Of a stretch of DNA of 35,155 nt, positions 12,617 to 33,497 are shown one piece after another. The stretch is taken from positions 1 to 35,155 of the IMG/VR virus record IMGVR_UViG_3300036796_000279. One strand, given 5' to 3'. The stretch's first letter is position 1, and every line of letters begins with the position of its first letter. A program made the position numbers and the translations under genes. The notes beneath the pieces are model-generated. The model was not told the DNA's origin. It saw only the letters and a list, made by a program, of their open reading frames with translations, and searched no databases. Source of the stretch: a virus (taxonomy: Duplodnaviria; Caudoviricetes).

Positions 12617-12637
12617 GCCGAAAGGCGGGAGATAGTT

Positions 12638-12844
12638 ATGACTTTAGAAGAGCGTGTTGAAGCTCTAGAAGCGGATATGACTAAGATGAATATTCAGCAG
12701 CAAGAAGCTGATGCAGTGAGGGAAGTAGCGAGAAAGACTACTATTGAGGTGATTGCAAATGCGCGTCGCCCTGGCGGTATGTTGAATGCGGCCCAGATTC
12801 AGGCCGCTGAGTATAAATCTAGGTTCGGTATTAATCGCGGCTAA
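12638..12844 (+). CDS. Small coiled-coil protein with a tape-measure C-terminus-like motif
   Basis: GGGAG RBS; AVREVARKTTIEVIANARRPGGML. Confidence 0.7.
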   Translation: MTLEERVEALEADMTKMNIQQQEADAVREVARKTTIEVIANARRPGGMLNAAQIQAAEYKSRFGINRG

Positions 12845-13046
12845 TTTGTTTTAGGTTTGCAACCCATTCCTGCATTGGTTTGTTATCAACTTCAGATAGC
12901 TCAGCTATTAATTGTTTACGTGAGCTAGGATCAAGCTTAAGAGCAATAGCTAAGACTATCGTCTTTAAATCGTTAATCTCTGAGGCTGTAGATTCAGGGG
13001 TTGCAGTCGAAGAAGTAAAAGTAAAATTATGTTCGCTACTTTCCAT
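12831..13046 (-). CDS. Antisense moron gene, 71 aa
   Basis: AAGGA RBS; AT-rich; convergent 14-nt overlap with 12638-12844. Confidence 0.7.
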   Translation of the reverse strand: MESSEHNFTFTSSTATPESTASEINDLKTIVLAIALKLDPSSRKQLIAELSEVDNKPMQEWVANLKQISRD

Positions 13047-13164
13047 TTCTAGTCCTTATTTCAGAGGTAATCAGCCATCCCTCATTGTTGTGTGCGTCCA
13101 TGCCCTCACATGGACGGGCTGAGGTTCAATGATAGCCAGGAGCAGGAGAAATGGACACTAACCA

Positions 13165-13190
13165 GGGCCTCGCAATAGCGGGGCTTTTTT
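13165..13190 (+). terminator. Intrinsic terminator
   Basis: GCCTCGC-AATA-GCGGGGC-T6. Confidence 0.75.
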
Positions 13191-13197
13191 ATGCGCA

Positions 13198-13303: not shown

Positions 13304-13480
13304 ATGCAACTTGGCAAGAAAAGCCGGAAGGGTAGACGCTGCATTATGCGGACTGACGCCACTCTAATCGTTAATAAGCGCGGAAAGGTTGAGGTGGTGC
13401 TTGGTTCGAATATCGACGAAAGCCACAAGCTCCGCACCGGAACCCCGTCAACTTTTAATCAATTAGGTAAAGCGTTATGA
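13304..13480 (+). CDS. 58-aa basic protein (not in ORF track)
   Basis: ATG 13304 after AAGG; TGA overlaps the ATG at 13477 (ATGA). Confidence 0.6.
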   Translation: MQLGKKSRKGRRCIMRTDATLIVNKRGKVEVVLGSNIDESHKLRTGTPSTFNQLGKAL

Positions 13481-14007
13481 AAAGAATTCAACTTAAGGAC
13501 GTAATGTCCAGCCTGCGTATCGTAGCCAATGAAACTGGCTATGAAGTTCACAACGCCGCCGGCTCCGCTAAATATGACGCTTGGGGTTATCGTCGTGAGG
13601 TTAACGGCATCCCTGAATACTTCCCGGATAAAATCAGCATGGAAGGCAAGGCAAAATCATCCAGCGCAAGCCAGATAAAAGTAAATCTGAATCTCGATAC
13701 TACGGATGCCCAGAAAGCGCTGGATGATATTCAGAAGATTATCAACGATAGCAGCCAGGCATTTGAATCATTTCAGGAGCGCGTCAGGAAGGAAACAACA
13801 AGCGTGACATGGAGTGGTTCTCTCGCGCTTGGTATCACTCGCGACATTAATGCATTGATTGAAAATGGTGTGGCCTCTAATGCAGAAAGTGAGCGTATTA
13901 AGGCAGTTATGGAAGAGGCAACAAAAAAAGCCGTTACTGATGCGGTGGCCACGGTCCTTAAAGACTTCCAAACTCGCGGACCTCTACGCCGGGCACTGAA
14001 CATTTAA
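13477..14007 (+). CDS. Hypothetical protein resembling both ends of the tape measure protein
   Basis: C-terminus MEEATKK..D..LKDFQTRGPLRRALNI versus TMP MQEAARK..D..LEDFQNRGQGRRLLGV. Confidence 0.75.
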   Translation: MKRIQLKDVMSSLRIVANETGYEVHNAAGSAKYDAWGYRREVNGIPEYFPDKISMEGKAKSSSASQIKVNLNLDTTDAQKALDDIQKIINDSSQAFESFQERVRKETTSVTWSGSLALGITRDINALIENGVASNAESERIKAVMEEATKKAVTDAVATVLKDFQTRGPLRRALNI

Positions 14008-24717: not shown

Positions 24718-24953
24718 TCGACTCTCCCTGGCTGATGCTGATTTTCTCCCTGGCTGATCGCCTGGGGGAGTCTGACCCTCGAAAAATCGCCAACCTGCCG
24801 GCAGATATTCTTCTCTACTGGCAGGCCTGGTATTCGTTAACCGGAAACGCTGTTCAGGCTATCGGTGAACCGGCCCCGGTTGCCGCACCACCAAAAACCA
24901 ACCCAGTTGTTTCTCAGCAGTGCGCTGATGTTATGAGGATCCTCGGACAATGA
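24714..24953 (+). CDS. gpT-like portion of the chaperone (via frameshift)
   Basis: Open in the -1 frame from the slippery site; ATGA overlap with TMP. Confidence 0.8.
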   Translation, partial: LIDSPWLMLIFSLADRLGESDPRKIANLPADILLYWQAWYSLTGNAVQAIGEPAPVAAPPKTNPVVSQQCADVMRILGQ

Positions 24954-27949
24954 GTGATGTCGCAAGCCTGTCGGTTGCCCTGCACCTGAATTCCGCTGCT
25001 TTCAAATCGCAGATCACCGACGCGTACCAGAAGGCCGGCCAGGCCAGCAAAAAATTCAATGACCAGGCGACCGCGCAGGCAAACGAATTATCCGAGGCGA
25101 TCGCCAGAACCGTCAGCGCGGCCAAAAACATTGGCATGCAAGGCAATGAGTCTGGTCAGTTCTCCAGCGTTACCCGCGGCGCTGGCCAGCTCAACTTCGT
25201 GCTTCACGAAGTTGCCGCAGGCAGCAACGTTGCCAGCAGTACGATTATTAATGCCCTTATTCCGGCTGTTCACTCGCTTAAAGGCCAATTAGATGGTTCT
25301 GCCGGTGGCTGGAAAACACAGCAGGACGCCGCCCGCAATGCTGCTGCAGAATTAGCGGCAGCCGCGCAAAGCCAGATCGCCGCTGCTCAGGCAGAAAAAC
25401 AGGCCGCGCTTAACAAGGCGGCCATTGCTGAGAAAACTATTGCTGCAGCTCAGGCTCAGCGTGAAGAGGCGATTGCCCTAGACGAGTATTACGCCAAGCA
25501 AACGCAAATGAACAAGCTCTATGGTCTGAACGTCAGCTACCAGGAGCAGCACCTCAAAAACGAGCGCGCCATCATCGAGGCAAACCGCCTGGAATCCGGC
25601 GCGCTGGAAAAACTGAAAACTGTTAAAGCTACTGTGATGGCCGCTGACCTGGCCGAGGCAGAAGGTAAAGCCGCGCTGGTGGCGTCAACTGAGGCGGCAG
25701 CGGCAGCCAATACGCAGATGACTATCTCTCAGCGCATCGCGGCGACCAGCAGTCGCGCACTCAGCTCTGCAATGAGTCTGCTTGGTGGCCCTGTCGGTAT
25801 TGGGCTTAGCGTTCTGGCCGCTGGCGGCACTCTGATCTACAGCGAGTTTAAAAAGGCCGAGGAGCAGACCAAAAAGCTCAATACCGCAATTCTAGACCTT
25901 CACACCTCTTCCCTTGTGTCATTAACAGACCTAAAAAACCTGAATAATCAGCTTGGTGACACTGATGCCTCTATTGATGCTGTAACGGCCACCGCAAAAG
26001 CGGGTTTTAGTGGTCATCTTCTGACTGATGTAGCAACGCTGGCTAATGCATACGCCGAGGCTGGTGGTAGCGCCCAGGATCTTGTTAATAATCTCTCATC
26101 ACTGCGTGGTGACCCCATTGCCGCGATGGAAAAACTGACCTCCCAAGGCGTGGCATTAAATGAGTCTATAATTCAACAGGTTATAAGCTTAACCAAAAAA
26201 GGACAAACTGCACAAGCAACGCAAGTAATAATGGAACAGGCCCTAGAGGCTGAAAACGTCCGGCTGAAAGAACTCGGAGCACAGGCCGACACCTACCTCG
26301 ACAAATTAAAAAATCTTGGGCGAGAATGGGGGGCTCTTGGTGGTCTAAGTGAGGCTGTTGCCTGGGGGGATGTGCTAGGGAGAAATCAGAAAGATTTTGA
26401 GGATAAAACCCGACAGTTTCTGGCCGCAAGTAAAGCTGGTTATGCTGAAGCTCAGAGCGAGCGAATTAAAAACGCCGCTGGCCTTAAAAGCTATATGGAT
26501 GCAGGAACCAGCGCTGCGGAGAAACGTGCTGCGGCAATTAAGAAACTGAATAATAGTATTTATCAACCTGATTCAACCGATTATCAGCGAATCCTCAAAG
26601 GGATTAACGATGAATACGAAAAGTCCACCAAAAAACCAAAAGCCAGCGCCTCTGCTGGGATAACCGAAGGTCAGCGCGCTCTTGAGCAAGCCCAGCAACG
26701 CAATGTAGTTTTGCTGGAGCAAGCACAAACCACAGACAAGCAAACGGAATCGCAGCGTCAGCTTATTATCTTCGAACAAAAGATATCCAGCCTGAAGGGG
26801 GAGCATCTCACTGCCGATCAGCAAAGCCTAGTTAATATGCAGGCACAAATCCGCTCTCAACTTCAGTCGAACGTACAGCTTGAGAAAGAGGCGGCCTTAC
26901 GACAAACGGCAATGAAGTATCAGCAGGAGAGCATTAAGTGGGCTGAAGAAGCAGATGCCATGCAGCGTGAGGCAGCGCTGGCAGTAGAAAAATTCGGTAT
27001 GTCTGAAAGAGAGGCTGCTGATGCAGAAGCCCGTAACGCCATCATTAACCGCTTTAATCAGCGCCGTATAGCGCTGGAGAAAGATTTTACCGATCACACA
27101 TCAGCTGAGTATCAGACCCGGCTCGCTGACCTGGAGAATGCTCAGCAACGTGAGTTGCAGATAACCGAACAGACCAGGCAGCAGAAAATGGCTGCAGAAC
27201 AGGATTTCAGCGCTGGCCTGCGTAAGGGCGCTGTTGACTGGCTGGACTCTGCATCAAGCTACGCAACACAAAGCGCAAACCTCGTTAGCAACACTATGAG
27301 TGGGTTTGTAGATCAATTATCTGGCGCATTGAGCGGGAACAAAGCCAGTTGGCAGGATTGGGCAAATTCTGTATTGCAGTCAATGCAAAAGGTGATCCTC
27401 AACGCAATGCTTGTGAACAGTATTCAGTCTATGGGGGGCTCAAGTCTTTTCGGTTTCTTTGGCGGTGGATCAGGAGGCACAGCCGCTTCAGCGAGCGGGG
27501 GAACCTTTGGCGCTGGCGCATGGGATTCTGCCGCCTCAGGAGTGAAGTTTAATGCCAAAGGTGGGGTTTATGACTCGCCTTCGCTTAGCTCCTACAGCAA
27601 CGGCGTTTTCAATTCTCCTCAGGTATTCGCCTTTGCTAAAGGGGCTGGTGTATTTGCTGAGGCAGGCCCTGAGGCAATTATGCCACTGGCAAGGGGAGCA
27701 AATGGCTCACTGGGTGTAAGGGCTGTTGATGCTGGTGGCTCAAACTCTACAGAGACTTCATCGATGGGCGATCCCATTATTCAAATTACCCAGCACATCA
27801 GTGTATCCGGTAATGGCGATGCCGCTCTCAACCAAGCCATGCAGGAAGCGGCTAGGAAAGGCGCTCAGGATGGCGCTAAGTTGGCTCACCAGAAAATGCT
27901 GGAAGATTTCCAAAACCGCGGGCAGGGGAGGAGATTGCTGGGTGTTTAG
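24950..27949 (+). CDS. Tail tape measure protein
   Basis: 999 aa, Ala/Gln-rich helical; FNAKGGVY..FAFAKGAGVFAEAGPEAIMPL motif. Confidence 0.95.
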   Translation: MSDVASLSVALHLNSAAFKSQITDAYQKAGQASKKFNDQATAQANELSEAIARTVSAAKNIGMQGNESGQFSSVTRGAGQLNFVLHEVAAGSNVASSTIINALIPAVHSLKGQLDGSAGGWKTQQDAARNAAAELAAAAQSQIAAAQAEKQAALNKAAIAEKTIAAAQAQREEAIALDEYYAKQTQMNKLYGLNVSYQEQHLKNERAIIEANRLESGALEKLKTVKATVMAADLAEAEGKAALVASTEAAAAANTQMTISQRIAATSSRALSSAMSLLGGPVGIGLSVLAAGGTLIYSEFKKAEEQTKKLNTAILDLHTSSLVSLTDLKNLNNQLGDTDASIDAVTATAKAGFSGHLLTDVATLANAYAEAGGSAQDLVNNLSSLRGDPIAAMEKLTSQGVALNESIIQQVISLTKKGQTAQATQVIMEQALEAENVRLKELGAQADTYLDKLKNLGREWGALGGLSEAVAWGDVLGRNQKDFEDKTRQFLAASKAGYAEAQSERIKNAAGLKSYMDAGTSAAEKRAAAIKKLNNSIYQPDSTDYQRILKGINDEYEKSTKKPKASASAGITEGQRALEQAQQRNVVLLEQAQTTDKQTESQRQLIIFEQKISSLKGEHLTADQQSLVNMQAQIRSQLQSNVQLEKEAALRQTAMKYQQESIKWAEEADAMQREAALAVEKFGMSEREAADAEARNAIINRFNQRRIALEKDFTDHTSAEYQTRLADLENAQQRELQITEQTRQQKMAAEQDFSAGLRKGAVDWLDSASSYATQSANLVSNTMSGFVDQLSGALSGNKASWQDWANSVLQSMQKVILNAMLVNSIQSMGGSSLFGFFGGGSGGTAASASGGTFGAGAWDSAASGVKFNAKGGVYDSPSLSSYSNGVFNSPQVFAFAKGAGVFAEAGPEAIMPLARGANGSLGVRAVDAGGSNSTETSSMGDPIIQITQHISVSGNGDAALNQAMQEAARKGAQDGAKLAHQKMLEDFQNRGQGRRLLGV

Positions 27950-28016: not shown

Positions 28017-28448
28017 GTGAAAGGGATTGGCTTGGTTGTTCTGGTTGTCGGTGTCATATGGGCAATTGTTGCTCTGAATATGGATGTGAGTGTTGCCACA
28101 GGATATGGGAGGGTAAATAATATAGGATTGATGGCATCAAGACAGACTCATTTAATTTTTGCTGGTTTTTTATCTATTGCCGGTATTTTGCTAGTTCTAT
28201 TTGGTGATAAATTTAGCCTGTCCACTATAGAAAGGAAATGTCCTTTCTGTGCAGAATTAATAAGTAAAGAAGCAACAAAGTGCAAGCACTGTGGAATCGA
28301 TGTATCGCAAATTGAAACCCATAATTCAATAGCTGAAGATGTGACGCCTTCTGTAGCTCATGGATGGTTTAGCACCAAGGTAACGATAGGGATTGTCGTT
28401 GGTATATTCGCAGTTATTGTGTTACATATCGTTGTCTATAGAATGTAG
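28017..28448 (+). CDS. Moron: membrane protein with Zn ribbon
   Basis: Three hydrophobic segments; KCPFCAELI..EATKCKHCG; AT-rich. Confidence 0.8.
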   Translation: MKGIGLVVLVVGVIWAIVALNMDVSVATGYGRVNNIGLMASRQTHLIFAGFLSIAGILLVLFGDKFSLSTIERKCPFCAELISKEATKCKHCGIDVSQIETHNSIAEDVTPSVAHGWFSTKVTIGIVVGIFAVIVLHIVVYRM

Positions 28449-28488
28449 TTTGTATTATATTTTTCATGTTGATTTAAGGATGATGATT

Positions 28489-29172
28489 ATGCGCTTCTTG
28501 ATACCACTAACTATTTTGGTAGTACCAACTTTTGCATTTGCTGCTGCAGGAGATCAGACTTTATCTGTTGGGTACACACAGATACATTCATCAGGTTTGA
28601 AAGGATATTACAATCAGGTTGCAAATCTATATAGCGATGTAACAAATAGCGCTGCGTTATATGGCGGTCAAAAATCATCATTAGACATTGATAACTATAA
28701 GCAACCGGAAGGCATGTTCATCAGGTATCGTTATGAATACGATCATAGCCTTGGTGTCGTAGGGTCATTATCATATGCTGTGCAGGATAACAATATAAAC
28801 ACATCAAATGTTTACTCCAGATTTGGTGTGAATTATGAAGATGCATATAAGAACAATATAAGTAGCAACTATTTTTCTGCATTGATAGGACCATCGTATA
28901 GAATAAACAGTTATTTAAGCCTGTTGGCTATGGCTGGCATATCTTATAAAAGTGTAGAAACCAAGATAAAGGCGTTTTCTTACGAGAATGACCGGGTGGT
29001 AAATTCAGGTGCATATTCTGAAAGTGAGCATAAGTTTTCACCAGCTTACAGCCTTGGCGCTCAGGTTAATATCTACCAGGGTCTGGTAATTGATGCGGCT
29101 TATGAAGCATCATCTGGGGGAAGACAATGGAAAACAAACGGATTCACCGTAGGCATCGGTTATAAATTCTGA
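28489..29172 (+). CDS. Ail/Lom/OmpX-family outer-membrane beta-barrel
   Basis: Signal peptide, TLSVGY, RYRYE, GPSYRIN, AYSLGAQ.N, terminal VGIGYKF. Confidence 0.9.
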   Translation: MRFLIPLTILVVPTFAFAAAGDQTLSVGYTQIHSSGLKGYYNQVANLYSDVTNSAALYGGQKSSLDIDNYKQPEGMFIRYRYEYDHSLGVVGSLSYAVQDNNINTSNVYSRFGVNYEDAYKNNISSNYFSALIGPSYRINSYLSLLAMAGISYKSVETKIKAFSYENDRVVNSGAYSESEHKFSPAYSLGAQVNIYQGLVIDAAYEASSGGRQWKTNGFTVGIGYKF

Positions 29173-30414: not shown

Positions 30415-30813
30415 ATGAAGCATCCTGACTGGCAAAAAAGACTGATAGACGTGATTAGGGCCGCTGAAAAGCGGCCTTTTTTATGGGGCGAGCATGACTG
30501 CTGTCTGTTTGCTGCCGACTGCGCCCAGGCTATGTGCGGAGAGGATTTTGCATCTGATTTGCGCGGGACCTACAGCACGGACGTAGGCGCTAAGCGCGTG
30601 CTGCTTAATCGCGGTGGCTCGATTGAGAAGGTGCTGGCGCAGCATCTGGATGAAGTGCCTGTTAGCCTGCGCCAGCGTGGGGATATTGCCGTGGTGATGA
30701 GTGGCGACAGCCGCTGCGCCGGGGTTGTGTTCAGCGGCACCGTTTTTGTTCCCGGGGAAACCGGGCTGGTGAAAGTGTCGGGCAAGCCCGAGAGTGTCTG
30801 GAGGGTTCGATAA
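30415..30813 (+). CDS. NlpC/P60-like tail assembly protein
   Basis: PFLWGEHDCCLFAADC..RGDI. Confidence 0.75.
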   Translation: MKHPDWQKRLIDVIRAAEKRPFLWGEHDCCLFAADCAQAMCGEDFASDLRGTYSTDVGAKRVLLNRGGSIEKVLAQHLDEVPVSLRQRGDIAVVMSGDSRCAGVVFSGTVFVPGETGLVKVSGKPESVWRVR

Positions 30814-33497
30814 TGCCTGCAGCTATTCCTATTATTGGGGCCGTAGCTGCTGGAGTGGCTGCGTCCTATGAAGCCTACGGAATTGCGATGGCGATTACGA
30901 TTGCGGCGCAGATTGCGACACAGGCACTGACAAAGACTCCTTCTCTTGGCAATTATCGAGATAACTCAGAGCGTAAGCAGGTGCTGCGCGCGGCCGCCAG
31001 CGCAAAAACAGTGACTTATGGGCAGACGTTATCCGCGGGCACGCTTTTTTTCTCAGAAGAGCAGCCAGGCGAGCAGGAAGACGGCGAGCTGCTGCACCTG
31101 GCGATTACGCTGGCCGGTCATCCGCTTTCCAGTGTTGGTAAAATTTACCTGGGCGATGATGAAATCGCCACATATGCCGAGTACGCACAGTACGAAGTGC
31201 ATATTGACCGCCAGACCGCCGACCCCTATTTACTCGCTAACGCCCCATCCTGGAAAGCCGACATGATCGGCAAAGGCATCAGTTGGTTGCGACTCACGCT
31301 GAAATACAGCGCTGAAAAATTCCCTTCAGGCATTCCAAATGTGCGTGTCGAAAAGTTTGGGCGCCCGGTCTACGACCCACGCACCGGACAAACTGTTTAT
31401 TCGAACAATGCCGCGCTCTGCATTCTGGACTATTACCGCAACTACCTGAATGTGCCTGACAGTGACATTCTCTGGGACCAGTTTCAGGAAGCGGCCAATA
31501 TCGCTGATGAGCTTGTTAGCCGGGCCGATGGTGCCACGGAGAAGCGGTACACGATTAACGGCGAGTTCGATTTAAGCGAGAACAAAGCCAGCATCCTTGA
31601 AGCGATGCTTTCAGCCTGTGCCGGAGAGCCAACCTATACCGCAGGCAAGCACGGTATCCTTGTCGGGGCGTATTATGGCCCGGCCAGTCTGGTTATCACC
31701 GAAAACCAGTTAGCTGGCGATATTGAAATCATGCCAGAGGTGTCGCAGTCAGAGCGAGTGAATACTATAAAAGGGACGTTCACCGATCCGCTTCAGTTCT
31801 ACTCCGAAACAGATTTTCCGGCCGTATCGGTCAGCGAGTGGGTAACCGAGGATGGCGTAGAGATTTCGCAGGATATGAAACTCCGCTTCGTCACTTCGGA
31901 GTTCCAGGGCCAGCGCCTGGCTGACATCAAGCTGAAGCGTACACGTATATCACGCACGATGAACGTTGTGCTGAATCTGAGCGGGTACCGCTACCGGCCT
32001 GGTATGTACGTGAAAGTTAATTTCCCGACTCTTGCCATGAACAATGTTGAGATGCGCGTCACTGACTGGAAGTTTGGCGTGCAGAACGGCGTGCAGCTGA
32101 CGCTTAAACAGGAAACCTCGGATGTTTGGGGGGATGCGATCGGCAAGCCGATTGAGCGGCCGCCATTCACCCAACTTCCTCCGGGTGGAGTGGCCCAGCC
32201 TCAGAACCTGCGTTATACGGTCGAGGAAATTGGGCAGGTGGTGCAGGGAGTGTTGTCCTGGCAGAACATCGGGCAGGTTTCCTACAACAAAGTGATCATT
32301 CGGCGCGCCGGTGTTCCCGTCCTCTCTGTGCAGGTCCCGGGTTCATTTACCCGGCTAACCGGGTTGCCGCGCGACAGTTATACCGCCCATGTAATTGCTG
32401 TTAACCAGATGGGCGGCCAGTCACCGGAAGCTTTTCTGCAGTTCAACATTGATGCGCCGCCGGCGCCGTCGATCGTGGATATCGAGCAGGGATATTTTTC
32501 TGTCACGCTGAAACCACGGCTGGCCGAACTTACCAGCGTTTCCACGCAGTTTGATTTCTGGACCTCCGGAGAAACTAAGCTCGCCAATACTGATACGGCG
32601 ACGGTGGAGGCGCATGCCACGCGCGCGGGCATGGGCACGATATGGACGAGCAACGAGCTGCAGGTCGACCACACCTATTACTGGTATGTGCGCACAATTA
32701 ATGCCTTCGGCTCGTCAGCTTTTGTGGAAGTAGCTGCGCTGTGCAGCATGGACACCGGCAGCCTGATTGACCTGGTCGATGATGCTGTCCGGGATTCGGA
32801 CGCATTCAAAAATGTTGCTGACGGAGTGGATACCAACCTGGAAGGCATCATGGAAAACGCACTGGCCAATCACGGCAGCGTAGAACGCCAGTTCCAGCAA
32901 CTTGGGCAGACGCGTGCGGAAATCATGACAGTGCGGACTACTGTTGCCAACCTGGATGGGGCTTTCGCCGAGTTGGCCGATTATGTCCAGGCGCAGATTG
33001 GCCCGGATGGCGAACTGATGGCTGCCGTTAATCAGAAAATGACAGCAGAGGTTAAAAGCGATGGCACAGCGAAGGCAAGCTATACCCTCAACATGGGGAT
33101 CGTCAGAAATGGTGTGAAGTACAACACCGGATTCGGGATGTCTATTGAGCCCTCCGGCGATTCGTATAAATCGACAGTTGTGTTTGCTGCTGACCAGTTT
33201 GGGGTTTATACCGGAAATGACCCAGGGAACTATAAACCGGCCATGATCCTTAAAAACGGTCAGGCATTTTTCAACGAGATATTCACGGATTACGCTTCAT
33301 TTACACTGGCGAAAATCGGGCAGTGGCGCTCGGCTAACTATGTTCCAGGTAGCACCGGCACGCGTATGGATGCTGATGGCTCATTTGAAGTAAATGGTGG
33401 TGCGCCGGGCGGTGGTCGCCTCGTCATTAATGGCCCGCGCATTTCTGCTATCGATGCGAACGGGGTTGAGCAAGCAAGGTTTGGGTACCTGAAATGA
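30813..33497 (+). CDS. Central tail fibre / tip attachment protein (gpJ-like)
   Basis: 894 aa; VYDPRTG..YSNN.AL, FnIII-like YWYVRTINAFG, C-terminal VVFAADQF segment. Confidence 0.9.
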   Translation: MPAAIPIIGAVAAGVAASYEAYGIAMAITIAAQIATQALTKTPSLGNYRDNSERKQVLRAAASAKTVTYGQTLSAGTLFFSEEQPGEQEDGELLHLAITLAGHPLSSVGKIYLGDDEIATYAEYAQYEVHIDRQTADPYLLANAPSWKADMIGKGISWLRLTLKYSAEKFPSGIPNVRVEKFGRPVYDPRTGQTVYSNNAALCILDYYRNYLNVPDSDILWDQFQEAANIADELVSRADGATEKRYTINGEFDLSENKASILEAMLSACAGEPTYTAGKHGILVGAYYGPASLVITENQLAGDIEIMPEVSQSERVNTIKGTFTDPLQFYSETDFPAVSVSEWVTEDGVEISQDMKLRFVTSEFQGQRLADIKLKRTRISRTMNVVLNLSGYRYRPGMYVKVNFPTLAMNNVEMRVTDWKFGVQNGVQLTLKQETSDVWGDAIGKPIERPPFTQLPPGGVAQPQNLRYTVEEIGQVVQGVLSWQNIGQVSYNKVIIRRAGVPVLSVQVPGSFTRLTGLPRDSYTAHVIAVNQMGGQSPEAFLQFNIDAPPAPSIVDIEQGYFSVTLKPRLAELTSVSTQFDFWTSGETKLANTDTATVEAHATRAGMGTIWTSNELQVDHTYYWYVRTINAFGSSAFVEVAALCSMDTGSLIDLVDDAVRDSDAFKNVADGVDTNLEGIMENALANHGSVERQFQQLGQTRAEIMTVRTTVANLDGAFAELADYVQAQIGPDGELMAAVNQKMTAEVKSDGTAKASYTLNMGIVRNGVKYNTGFGMSIEPSGDSYKSTVVFAADQFGVYTGNDPGNYKPAMILKNGQAFFNEIFTDYASFTLAKIGQWRSANYVPGSTGTRMDADGSFEVNGGAPGGGRLVINGPRISAIDANGVEQARFGYLK

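Follow-up and report, generated by a model that had tools for sequence, protein, structure and literature searches.

A convergent gene pair among the late genes of a lambdoid phage: a candidate tail-assembly blocker facing a partner with a J-like tail

Why should a lambdoid phage carry, directly 3' of its Rz gene, two small genes that run into each other from opposite strands? The window, that is the whole stretch of 35,155 nucleotides analysed here, is a lambdoid phage record in which Q, Rz, TMP and J are recognised by Pfam and in which lysis genes and terminases are present; its TMP gene occupies 24950-27949 and its J gene, for the central tail fibre, 30813-33497. The ORF pair lies in the late region. 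On the plus strand, a late gene and candidate decoy or antidote (12638-12844, ORF call, with a GGAG RBS at 12628-12631) encodes 68 aa and has six close homologues; on the minus strand, a reverse moron and candidate tail-assembly blocker (12831-13046, ORF call) encodes 71 aa. Both ORFs, and their tail-to-tail overlap of 14 nt, were found where a preceding sequence-only reading had placed them. According to that reading the minus gene inhibits the tail assembly of superinfecting phages, and the plus gene is its late antidote, mimicking the target by means of a segment that resembles a TMP C-terminus.

The minus gene, its leader and its distribution

The minus gene is AT-rich, at 37.5% GC against 52.2% for the window, and has an RBS of its own, AAGGA (13053-13057, minus strand), 6 nt before its ATG. 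Both traits had been pointed out before, as had a structured leader, which is placed here at 13071-13122 (minus strand) and is composed of an outer stem and an inner hairpin. Five of the 14 pairs of this hairpin change on both sides across 23 sequences, and the covariation score was reached by none of 500 shuffles, bearing in mind that the outer stem barely varies and that relatedness of the sequences can inflate covariation counts. The fold of the leader alone is modest (z -2.15), and no Rfam family matches it at gathering score. A -10-like hexamer, TATCAT (13129-13134, minus strand), lies 6 nt before the leader, and all 23 aligned leaders, as read by eye, are preceded at 6-7 nt by a TAnnnT hexamer. 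An upstream conserved block, present in most relatives, is missing in the window, and a strict promoter scan of the window returned no promoter for the minus gene; expression of the gene in the lysogen can therefore only be inferred.

Within the leader there is also a tiny ORF of five codons behind GAGG (13068-13085, minus strand), which in some relatives runs in frame into the moron, a possible means of translational control judging from the arrangement. Just beyond the cassette, on the plus strand, a terminator-like hairpin is followed by a T run (13167-13194); the strict scan missed this hairpin.

The minus protein matches phrog_6806 (E 1.2e-14), and a phmmer search returned 16 matches among cluster representatives, one being a spurious repeat protein; no relatives turned up in two scans of genome contigs, in plasmids or in an initial viral scan. 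Its closest relative, at locus L004, shares 53 of 71 residues with it, the two genes differing by 17 synonymous and 18 non-synonymous codons. In the predicted structure (pLDDT 86.5), the N-terminus is extended and three helices are present. Fold searches with this model gave nothing clear in the viral and PDB libraries (Foldseek, E>0.5), Tab not appearing among the matches listed, and the best VIA match (Z 6.0) was to generic helical bundles. Neighbours in the ESM Atlas include DUF2594 and IraP-like clusters, a lead only, with feature scores (0.77-0.83) below 0.9; Pfam gave no match to IraP or DUF2594 in 21 minus proteins. No curated family for the cassette was found in Pfam, PADLOC, NCBIfam or Rfam, and none of the 12 minus proteins scanned was matched by PADLOC or NCBIfam.

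The pair is a widespread convergent cassette. Viral contigs yielded 235 candidate stretches. A relative of the minus gene is encoded in 28 of them, and a convergent partner is present at every one of these loci; 27 of the pairs overlap by 14-62 nt, one is frameshifted, and 20 are distinct. At metagenome loci the partner is seen in three cases out of four. When the search starts from the plus side, all 25 loci, five of them also contained in the minus-side set, face a minus ORF, and these minus ORFs come from several families. A scan for the leader over half of the collection returned at least 121 loci, 41 of which were too short; among the 80 analysed, 63 have a partner of at least 40 aa, and none of that length was found at the other 17, five Srb-like loci included, nor was any partner found at L040. 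Whereas in the window the cassette follows Rz, in relatives it mostly lies between tail genes.

A partner with a swappable middle and a J-like end

The plus protein begins with a coiled-coil start that carries an RhxxhE motif (12638-12670, plus strand) and is helical in the model. This motif, known as a trimerisation motif, lies within the first 15 aa in 27 of the 50 distinct partners.

Residues 23-49 (12704-12784, plus strand) make up the TMP-C-terminus-like segment, swappable and of a non-self type. The 68-aa protein does contain the motif that had been quoted, and the lambda gpH end given for comparison agrees with the record. By rank, these residues place the lambda gpH C-terminus first of 34,131 six-frame windows, the ES18 TMP end first of 29,061, the SPN3UB TMP end second of 8,678, the HK022 and HK97 ends 28th and 57th, respectively, and the TMP end of the phage itself 98th of 25,563. 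Likeness to lambda gpH and difference from the phage's own TMP, as claimed earlier, are thus borne out; an exclusively lambda type is not, since ES18-type TMP ends score equally well. A profile match to TMP was likewise obtained, one in 20,000 shuffles being as good against a profile of 16 TMP ends, although these had been chosen by their RP/DG-G pattern, which biases the profile towards a match. A homologue of the plus protein, at L032, matches the TMP family phrog_24 near the TMP end (E 0.0012); an ESM Atlas search with the plus protein gave no usable match.

Across partners, the middle of the protein is interchangeable: it can be TMP-like or J-like, consist of a phrog_11851 domain or be all but absent. 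At L006 and L007, 66 of 72 residues of the minus proteins are identical, yet one middle is J-like and the other TMP-like; the partner at L004 is without a TMP-like piece, and that at L005, a close relative, keeps a shortened one. A TMP-only profile scores above shuffles in six of 13 partners of the window family, of which five are counted as having a clear TMP-like piece, because L011 has a negative score and no motif; the same profile also matches partners in all five other moron families tested. The proposal that this piece mimics the target of the minus gene is not supported: the phage's own TMP is unmatched, so that no need for self-protection arises, and the piece is absent from most family partners while sitting beside five other families. 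Its sequence and distribution suggest that it is probably not the antidote element; it would rather be a swappable extra, a second and independent decoy against the TMP-directed defences of other elements.

Another late ORF, of 176 aa (13477-14007, plus strand), ends in about 36 residues that match the C-terminus of the phage's own TMP (0 of 5,000 shuffles); it has a weak phrog_4705 match, and no facing moron was seen. J-like and TMP-N-like pieces were considered in it and rejected as not significant.

At the C-terminus of the plus protein, residues 56-67 (12803-12838, plus strand) carry a J-like motif, in a form that is degenerate in the window copy. Y59 and G64 are invariant across 13 aligned partners; both lie outside the ORF overlap, and the idea that the overlap forces the motif was rejected. 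A profile of ten partner tails, built without J and without the window copy, ranks a strand of the phage's own J, the putative target (J residues 754-765; 33072-33107, plus strand; inside Pfam Phage_Tail_Tip 738-874), first of 30,622 windows. The J strand also comes first in ES18 (of 35,001) and HK022 (of 31,649) and second in HK97 and SPN3UB; the J of lambda, matched at a different position, reaches rank 13. In the opposite direction, a J-only profile, made from two distinct strand sequences, matches nine of 12 partners of the window family at p<=0.02 (window partner, p 0.010), three of four family-F partners and none of 21 partners of four other families. For these counts, families were clustered after removing 27 of 82 pairs that were >90% identical, a few singletons being assigned by eye, and J segments and anchors were picked by eye after the sequences had been seen. 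As far as sequence goes, then, the family-wide feature of the partners is a C-terminal J-like motif that matches the phage's own J, with the caveat that tail and moron are adjacent and linkage alone could make them travel together.

The window copy itself is a poor example of the motif, with a serine at a site that is normally hydrophobic. It scores 8.7 bits (48 of 20,000 shuffles; third of 30,622), and hhalign pairs it with the same J strand at a probability of 1.7% only; a plain local alignment with six J proteins missed it, 138 of 200 shuffles doing equally well, and the single-chain model predicts a low-confidence helix, not a strand. Compared by eye with L005, the tail DNA (12803-12830, plus strand) looks as if it had undergone a 5-nt loss and a 5-nt gain, which could account for the degenerate motif.

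Related morons and HK022 Srb

By profile homology and by the shared leader, the window minus gene belongs with the HK022 Srb-like reverse morons (phrog_6806 group). HK022 Srb (gp23) is a homologue of the minus protein (hhalign probability 82%, E 1e-5; 16 of 73 residues identical), stands behind the same leader and faces a convergent partner, gp22, with a J-like stretch (p 0.010); it differs in belonging to another subfamily, matched to another J strand, and the record assigns it no function. Atkinson and Gottesman reportedly found, in 1992, that recessive mutations in a 73-codon ORF of HK022, presumably srb (gp23), restore growth under conditions of weak Q antitermination. Rescue by loss of srb when Q works poorly is what is expected of a self-inhibitor that late expression overcomes.

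The leader is common to HK022 gp23, HK97 gp23, ES18 gp25 and many other reverse morons. Convergent pairs behind it are found in HK022 (gp22/srb; L064, 13652-13972), HK97 (gp22/gp23; L062, 14475-14975) and ES18 (gp24/gp25; L063, 17528-18080), and in SPN3UB two cassettes, gp28/29 and gp32/33, flank the TMP gene (L001, 5123-5516 and 8220-8610). The same leader also stands before unrelated genes (L075, L079, L086, L101, L111, L121 and others), whose products include beta-rich proteins of about 88 aa, a cysteine-rich one of 63 aa and others of about 210 aa, some of them without a partner.

The tails of other families match other segments of J, strongly in family B, fairly in C, partly in D and not clearly in E, F and G, as judged by sequence. 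Family B tails rank J first in four of six genomes, and so do family C tails, with the match falling elsewhere in J in two of their four; family D tails rank the J C-terminus first in SPN3UB, second in ES18 and fifth in HK022. J-only profiles match one of eight D partners, two of four B partners and two of four C partners. For E, F and G tails no clear J segment of their own was found; two candidate sources, the J segment that follows the Ig domains for F tails and a J strand for E tails, were rejected for poor ranks. The J C-terminus matched by D tails contains V1176, a residue labelled for the J of HK106, of the same length, in a supplement figure of the Tai study (PMC11364771). Along the same line, the swappable middle of some partners matches lambda J 915-933, where F924 is given as the HepS trigger residue in the accessible text of PMC13043305.

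In phi80, next to tai/ati, orf66 (L002, 5353-6081) contains three J-like segments (0, 4 and 2 of 2,000 shuffles), matches Pfam Phage_Tail_Tip above cut-off and has a TMP-like end by eye, as a multi-epitope tail mimic would.

Mode of action, precedents and competing readings

The reading that I favour, and to which I would give an even chance, is that the pair consists of a blocker of J assembly expressed in the lysogen and a late antidote mimicking J. It is supported by the fixed pairing, by the shared leader and -10-like box, by partner tails that as a family resemble J and match the J of the window phage, and by the swappable nature of the TMP-like middle. The minus protein would be made in the lysogen from the leader cassette, and its extended N-terminus would seize a strand of nascent J by completing a sheet, in the manner of HepS, thereby blocking the folding or trimerisation of J, such that the tail tips of incoming lambdoid phages would not be formed. 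On induction, Q read-through would produce the late partner, whose J-like tail would titrate the minus protein, and might at the same time damp the minus gene by antisense, as is reported for Tai in the accessible text of PMC11364771. An antidote would be needed because the presumed target of the minus protein matches the phage's own J, a reason that a mimic of a non-self TMP does not provide. If the J strand is the target, lambda would be the least likely to be blocked among lambda, HK97 and HK022. The defence and late-antidote logic of the sequence-only reading is plausible, being in keeping with the fixed pairing, with a promoter-like box and a leader that are both conserved, and with what is described for Tab and Tai; its choice of the TMP piece as the mimic is not supported.

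The closest precedent in layout is Tab/anti-Tab of Pseudomonas phage JBD26, in which, according to the accessible text of PMC10884400, a minus-strand moron with its own promoter lies in the late operon and is countered by a late gene. Here too a small minus-strand moron (Tab has 83 aa) overlaps tail-to-tail with a small late gene. The two systems differ in showing no sequence likeness (hhalign probabilities of 0.15% and 0.10% against single sequences), in their PHROGs (phrog_14530/13614 versus phrog_6806) and in position, the Tab gene sitting between the genes of the small and the large terminase, the window pair after Rz (PMC10884400, accessible text). That text gives the TMP C-terminus as the target of Tab, whereas the comparative sequence data for the window family point to J, and it describes no mimicry for anti-Tab.

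In Tai/Ati of phi80, as described in the accessible text of PMC11364771, a minus gene that lies within the Q operon and is expressed constitutively is countered by a late gene, the target of Tai is the C-terminal region of J and Q damps Tai expression. By its position after Rz, the window minus gene is likewise an antisense gene in a Q-controlled late operon. However, Tai has 204 aa and no likeness to the minus family (probability 1.5%), nor is Ati like the partners, the phi80 versions being those compared; furthermore, the phi80 genes are arranged head-to-head and the window genes tail-to-tail. HepS of Gifsy-1 is a prophage protein that, in the accessible text of PMC13043305, binds a nascent J segment via a composite beta-sheet; the J segment bound by it recurs as the middle piece in related partners. 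It differs in being a HEPN tRNase whose self-activation is avoided, according to a review, by a J variant and not by a decoy gene. By sequence, the window cassette belongs to neither Tab/anti-Tab nor Tai/Ati; on the portions of these studies that were accessible, it is laid out like the former and may work like the latter.

A wider scheme can be offered tentatively, as possible though short of probable: one promoter-leader cassette would drive many small helical inhibitors, each for a different segment of nascent J, and late genes assembled from snippets of tail proteins would disarm them during lysis, the last snippet copying the cognate J segment and the middle ones, such as TMP ends and the HepS trigger, acting as decoys for other defences. 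Were this so, the sequence of a partner would read out the target of its inhibitor, and the first member to have been approached genetically would be HK022 srb. If the favoured reading of the window pair is right, it would represent a prophage tail-assembly defence family without sequence relation to Tab and Tai, with target mimicry as a mechanism of self-protection, which is not described for Tab or Tai in the accessible texts of PMC10884400 and PMC11364771. The antidote tail could then predict the phage epitope attacked by an uncharacterised moron, and a set of long-unassigned lambdoid morons could be explained. In the literature searched, mainly openly accessible, no account of the minus family or of J-mimic antidotes was found, and the cassette goes unmentioned in the accessible parts of a moron review, an LF82 paper, a conference report and editorials.

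Among the alternatives, the one that survives best, while still unlikely, reverses or uncouples the roles: the plus protein would be made late as a poison or a decoy with several epitopes, directed against the tail-sensing defences of other elements or against rival tails, and the minus protein would do no more than bind and neutralise the J-like tail of the plus protein, or would silence leaky late transcripts. Partners do hold pieces that are unrelated to the adjoining moron, such as a TMP end or a segment like the HepS trigger; orf66 of phi80 joins three J-like pieces; and the ORF at 13477-14007 mimics the TMP end of its own phage with no facing moron in sight. Yet at some loci no partner could be detected for Srb-like morons, the minus gene has a promoter-like cassette of its own and the reported srb genetics make the minus gene the inhibitor.

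Decidedly less probable is that the minus protein detects the J strand and, once triggered, works as a toxin or inhibits growth, in the manner of abortive infection and instead of blocking assembly, with the partner sequestering it. HepS acts in this way on a neighbouring J segment (PMC13043305, accessible text), and the DUF2594 and IraP-like Atlas neighbours, scoring below 0.9 and a lead only, would not be out of place; against this, a protein of 71 aa and three helices, for which fold searches found no enzyme fold, is a poor candidate, and a J-like partner could trigger such a sensor instead of silencing it.

It is improbable that the minus protein targets TMP C-termini after all, with the TMP-like segment as its antidote. 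The likeness to TMP is real, Tab has such a target (PMC10884400, accessible text) and the close relative L005 retains a shortened piece; nevertheless, self-protection is not needed where the own TMP is unmatched, the piece is clear in only five of 13 family partners and occurs beside all six families tested, and the closest relative, L004, lacks it.

Least credible of these readings is that the window holds a remnant of the cassette, in decay or left by recombination, with little function. Its tail is degenerate and its upstream promoter block has been replaced, but the two ORFs with their RBSs, the leader and the -10 box have all stayed intact, and synonymous changes make up about half of the codons that differ from relatives.

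Elsewhere in the window, two apparent membrane morons lie between the TMP gene and the next tail gene (28017-29172, plus strand).
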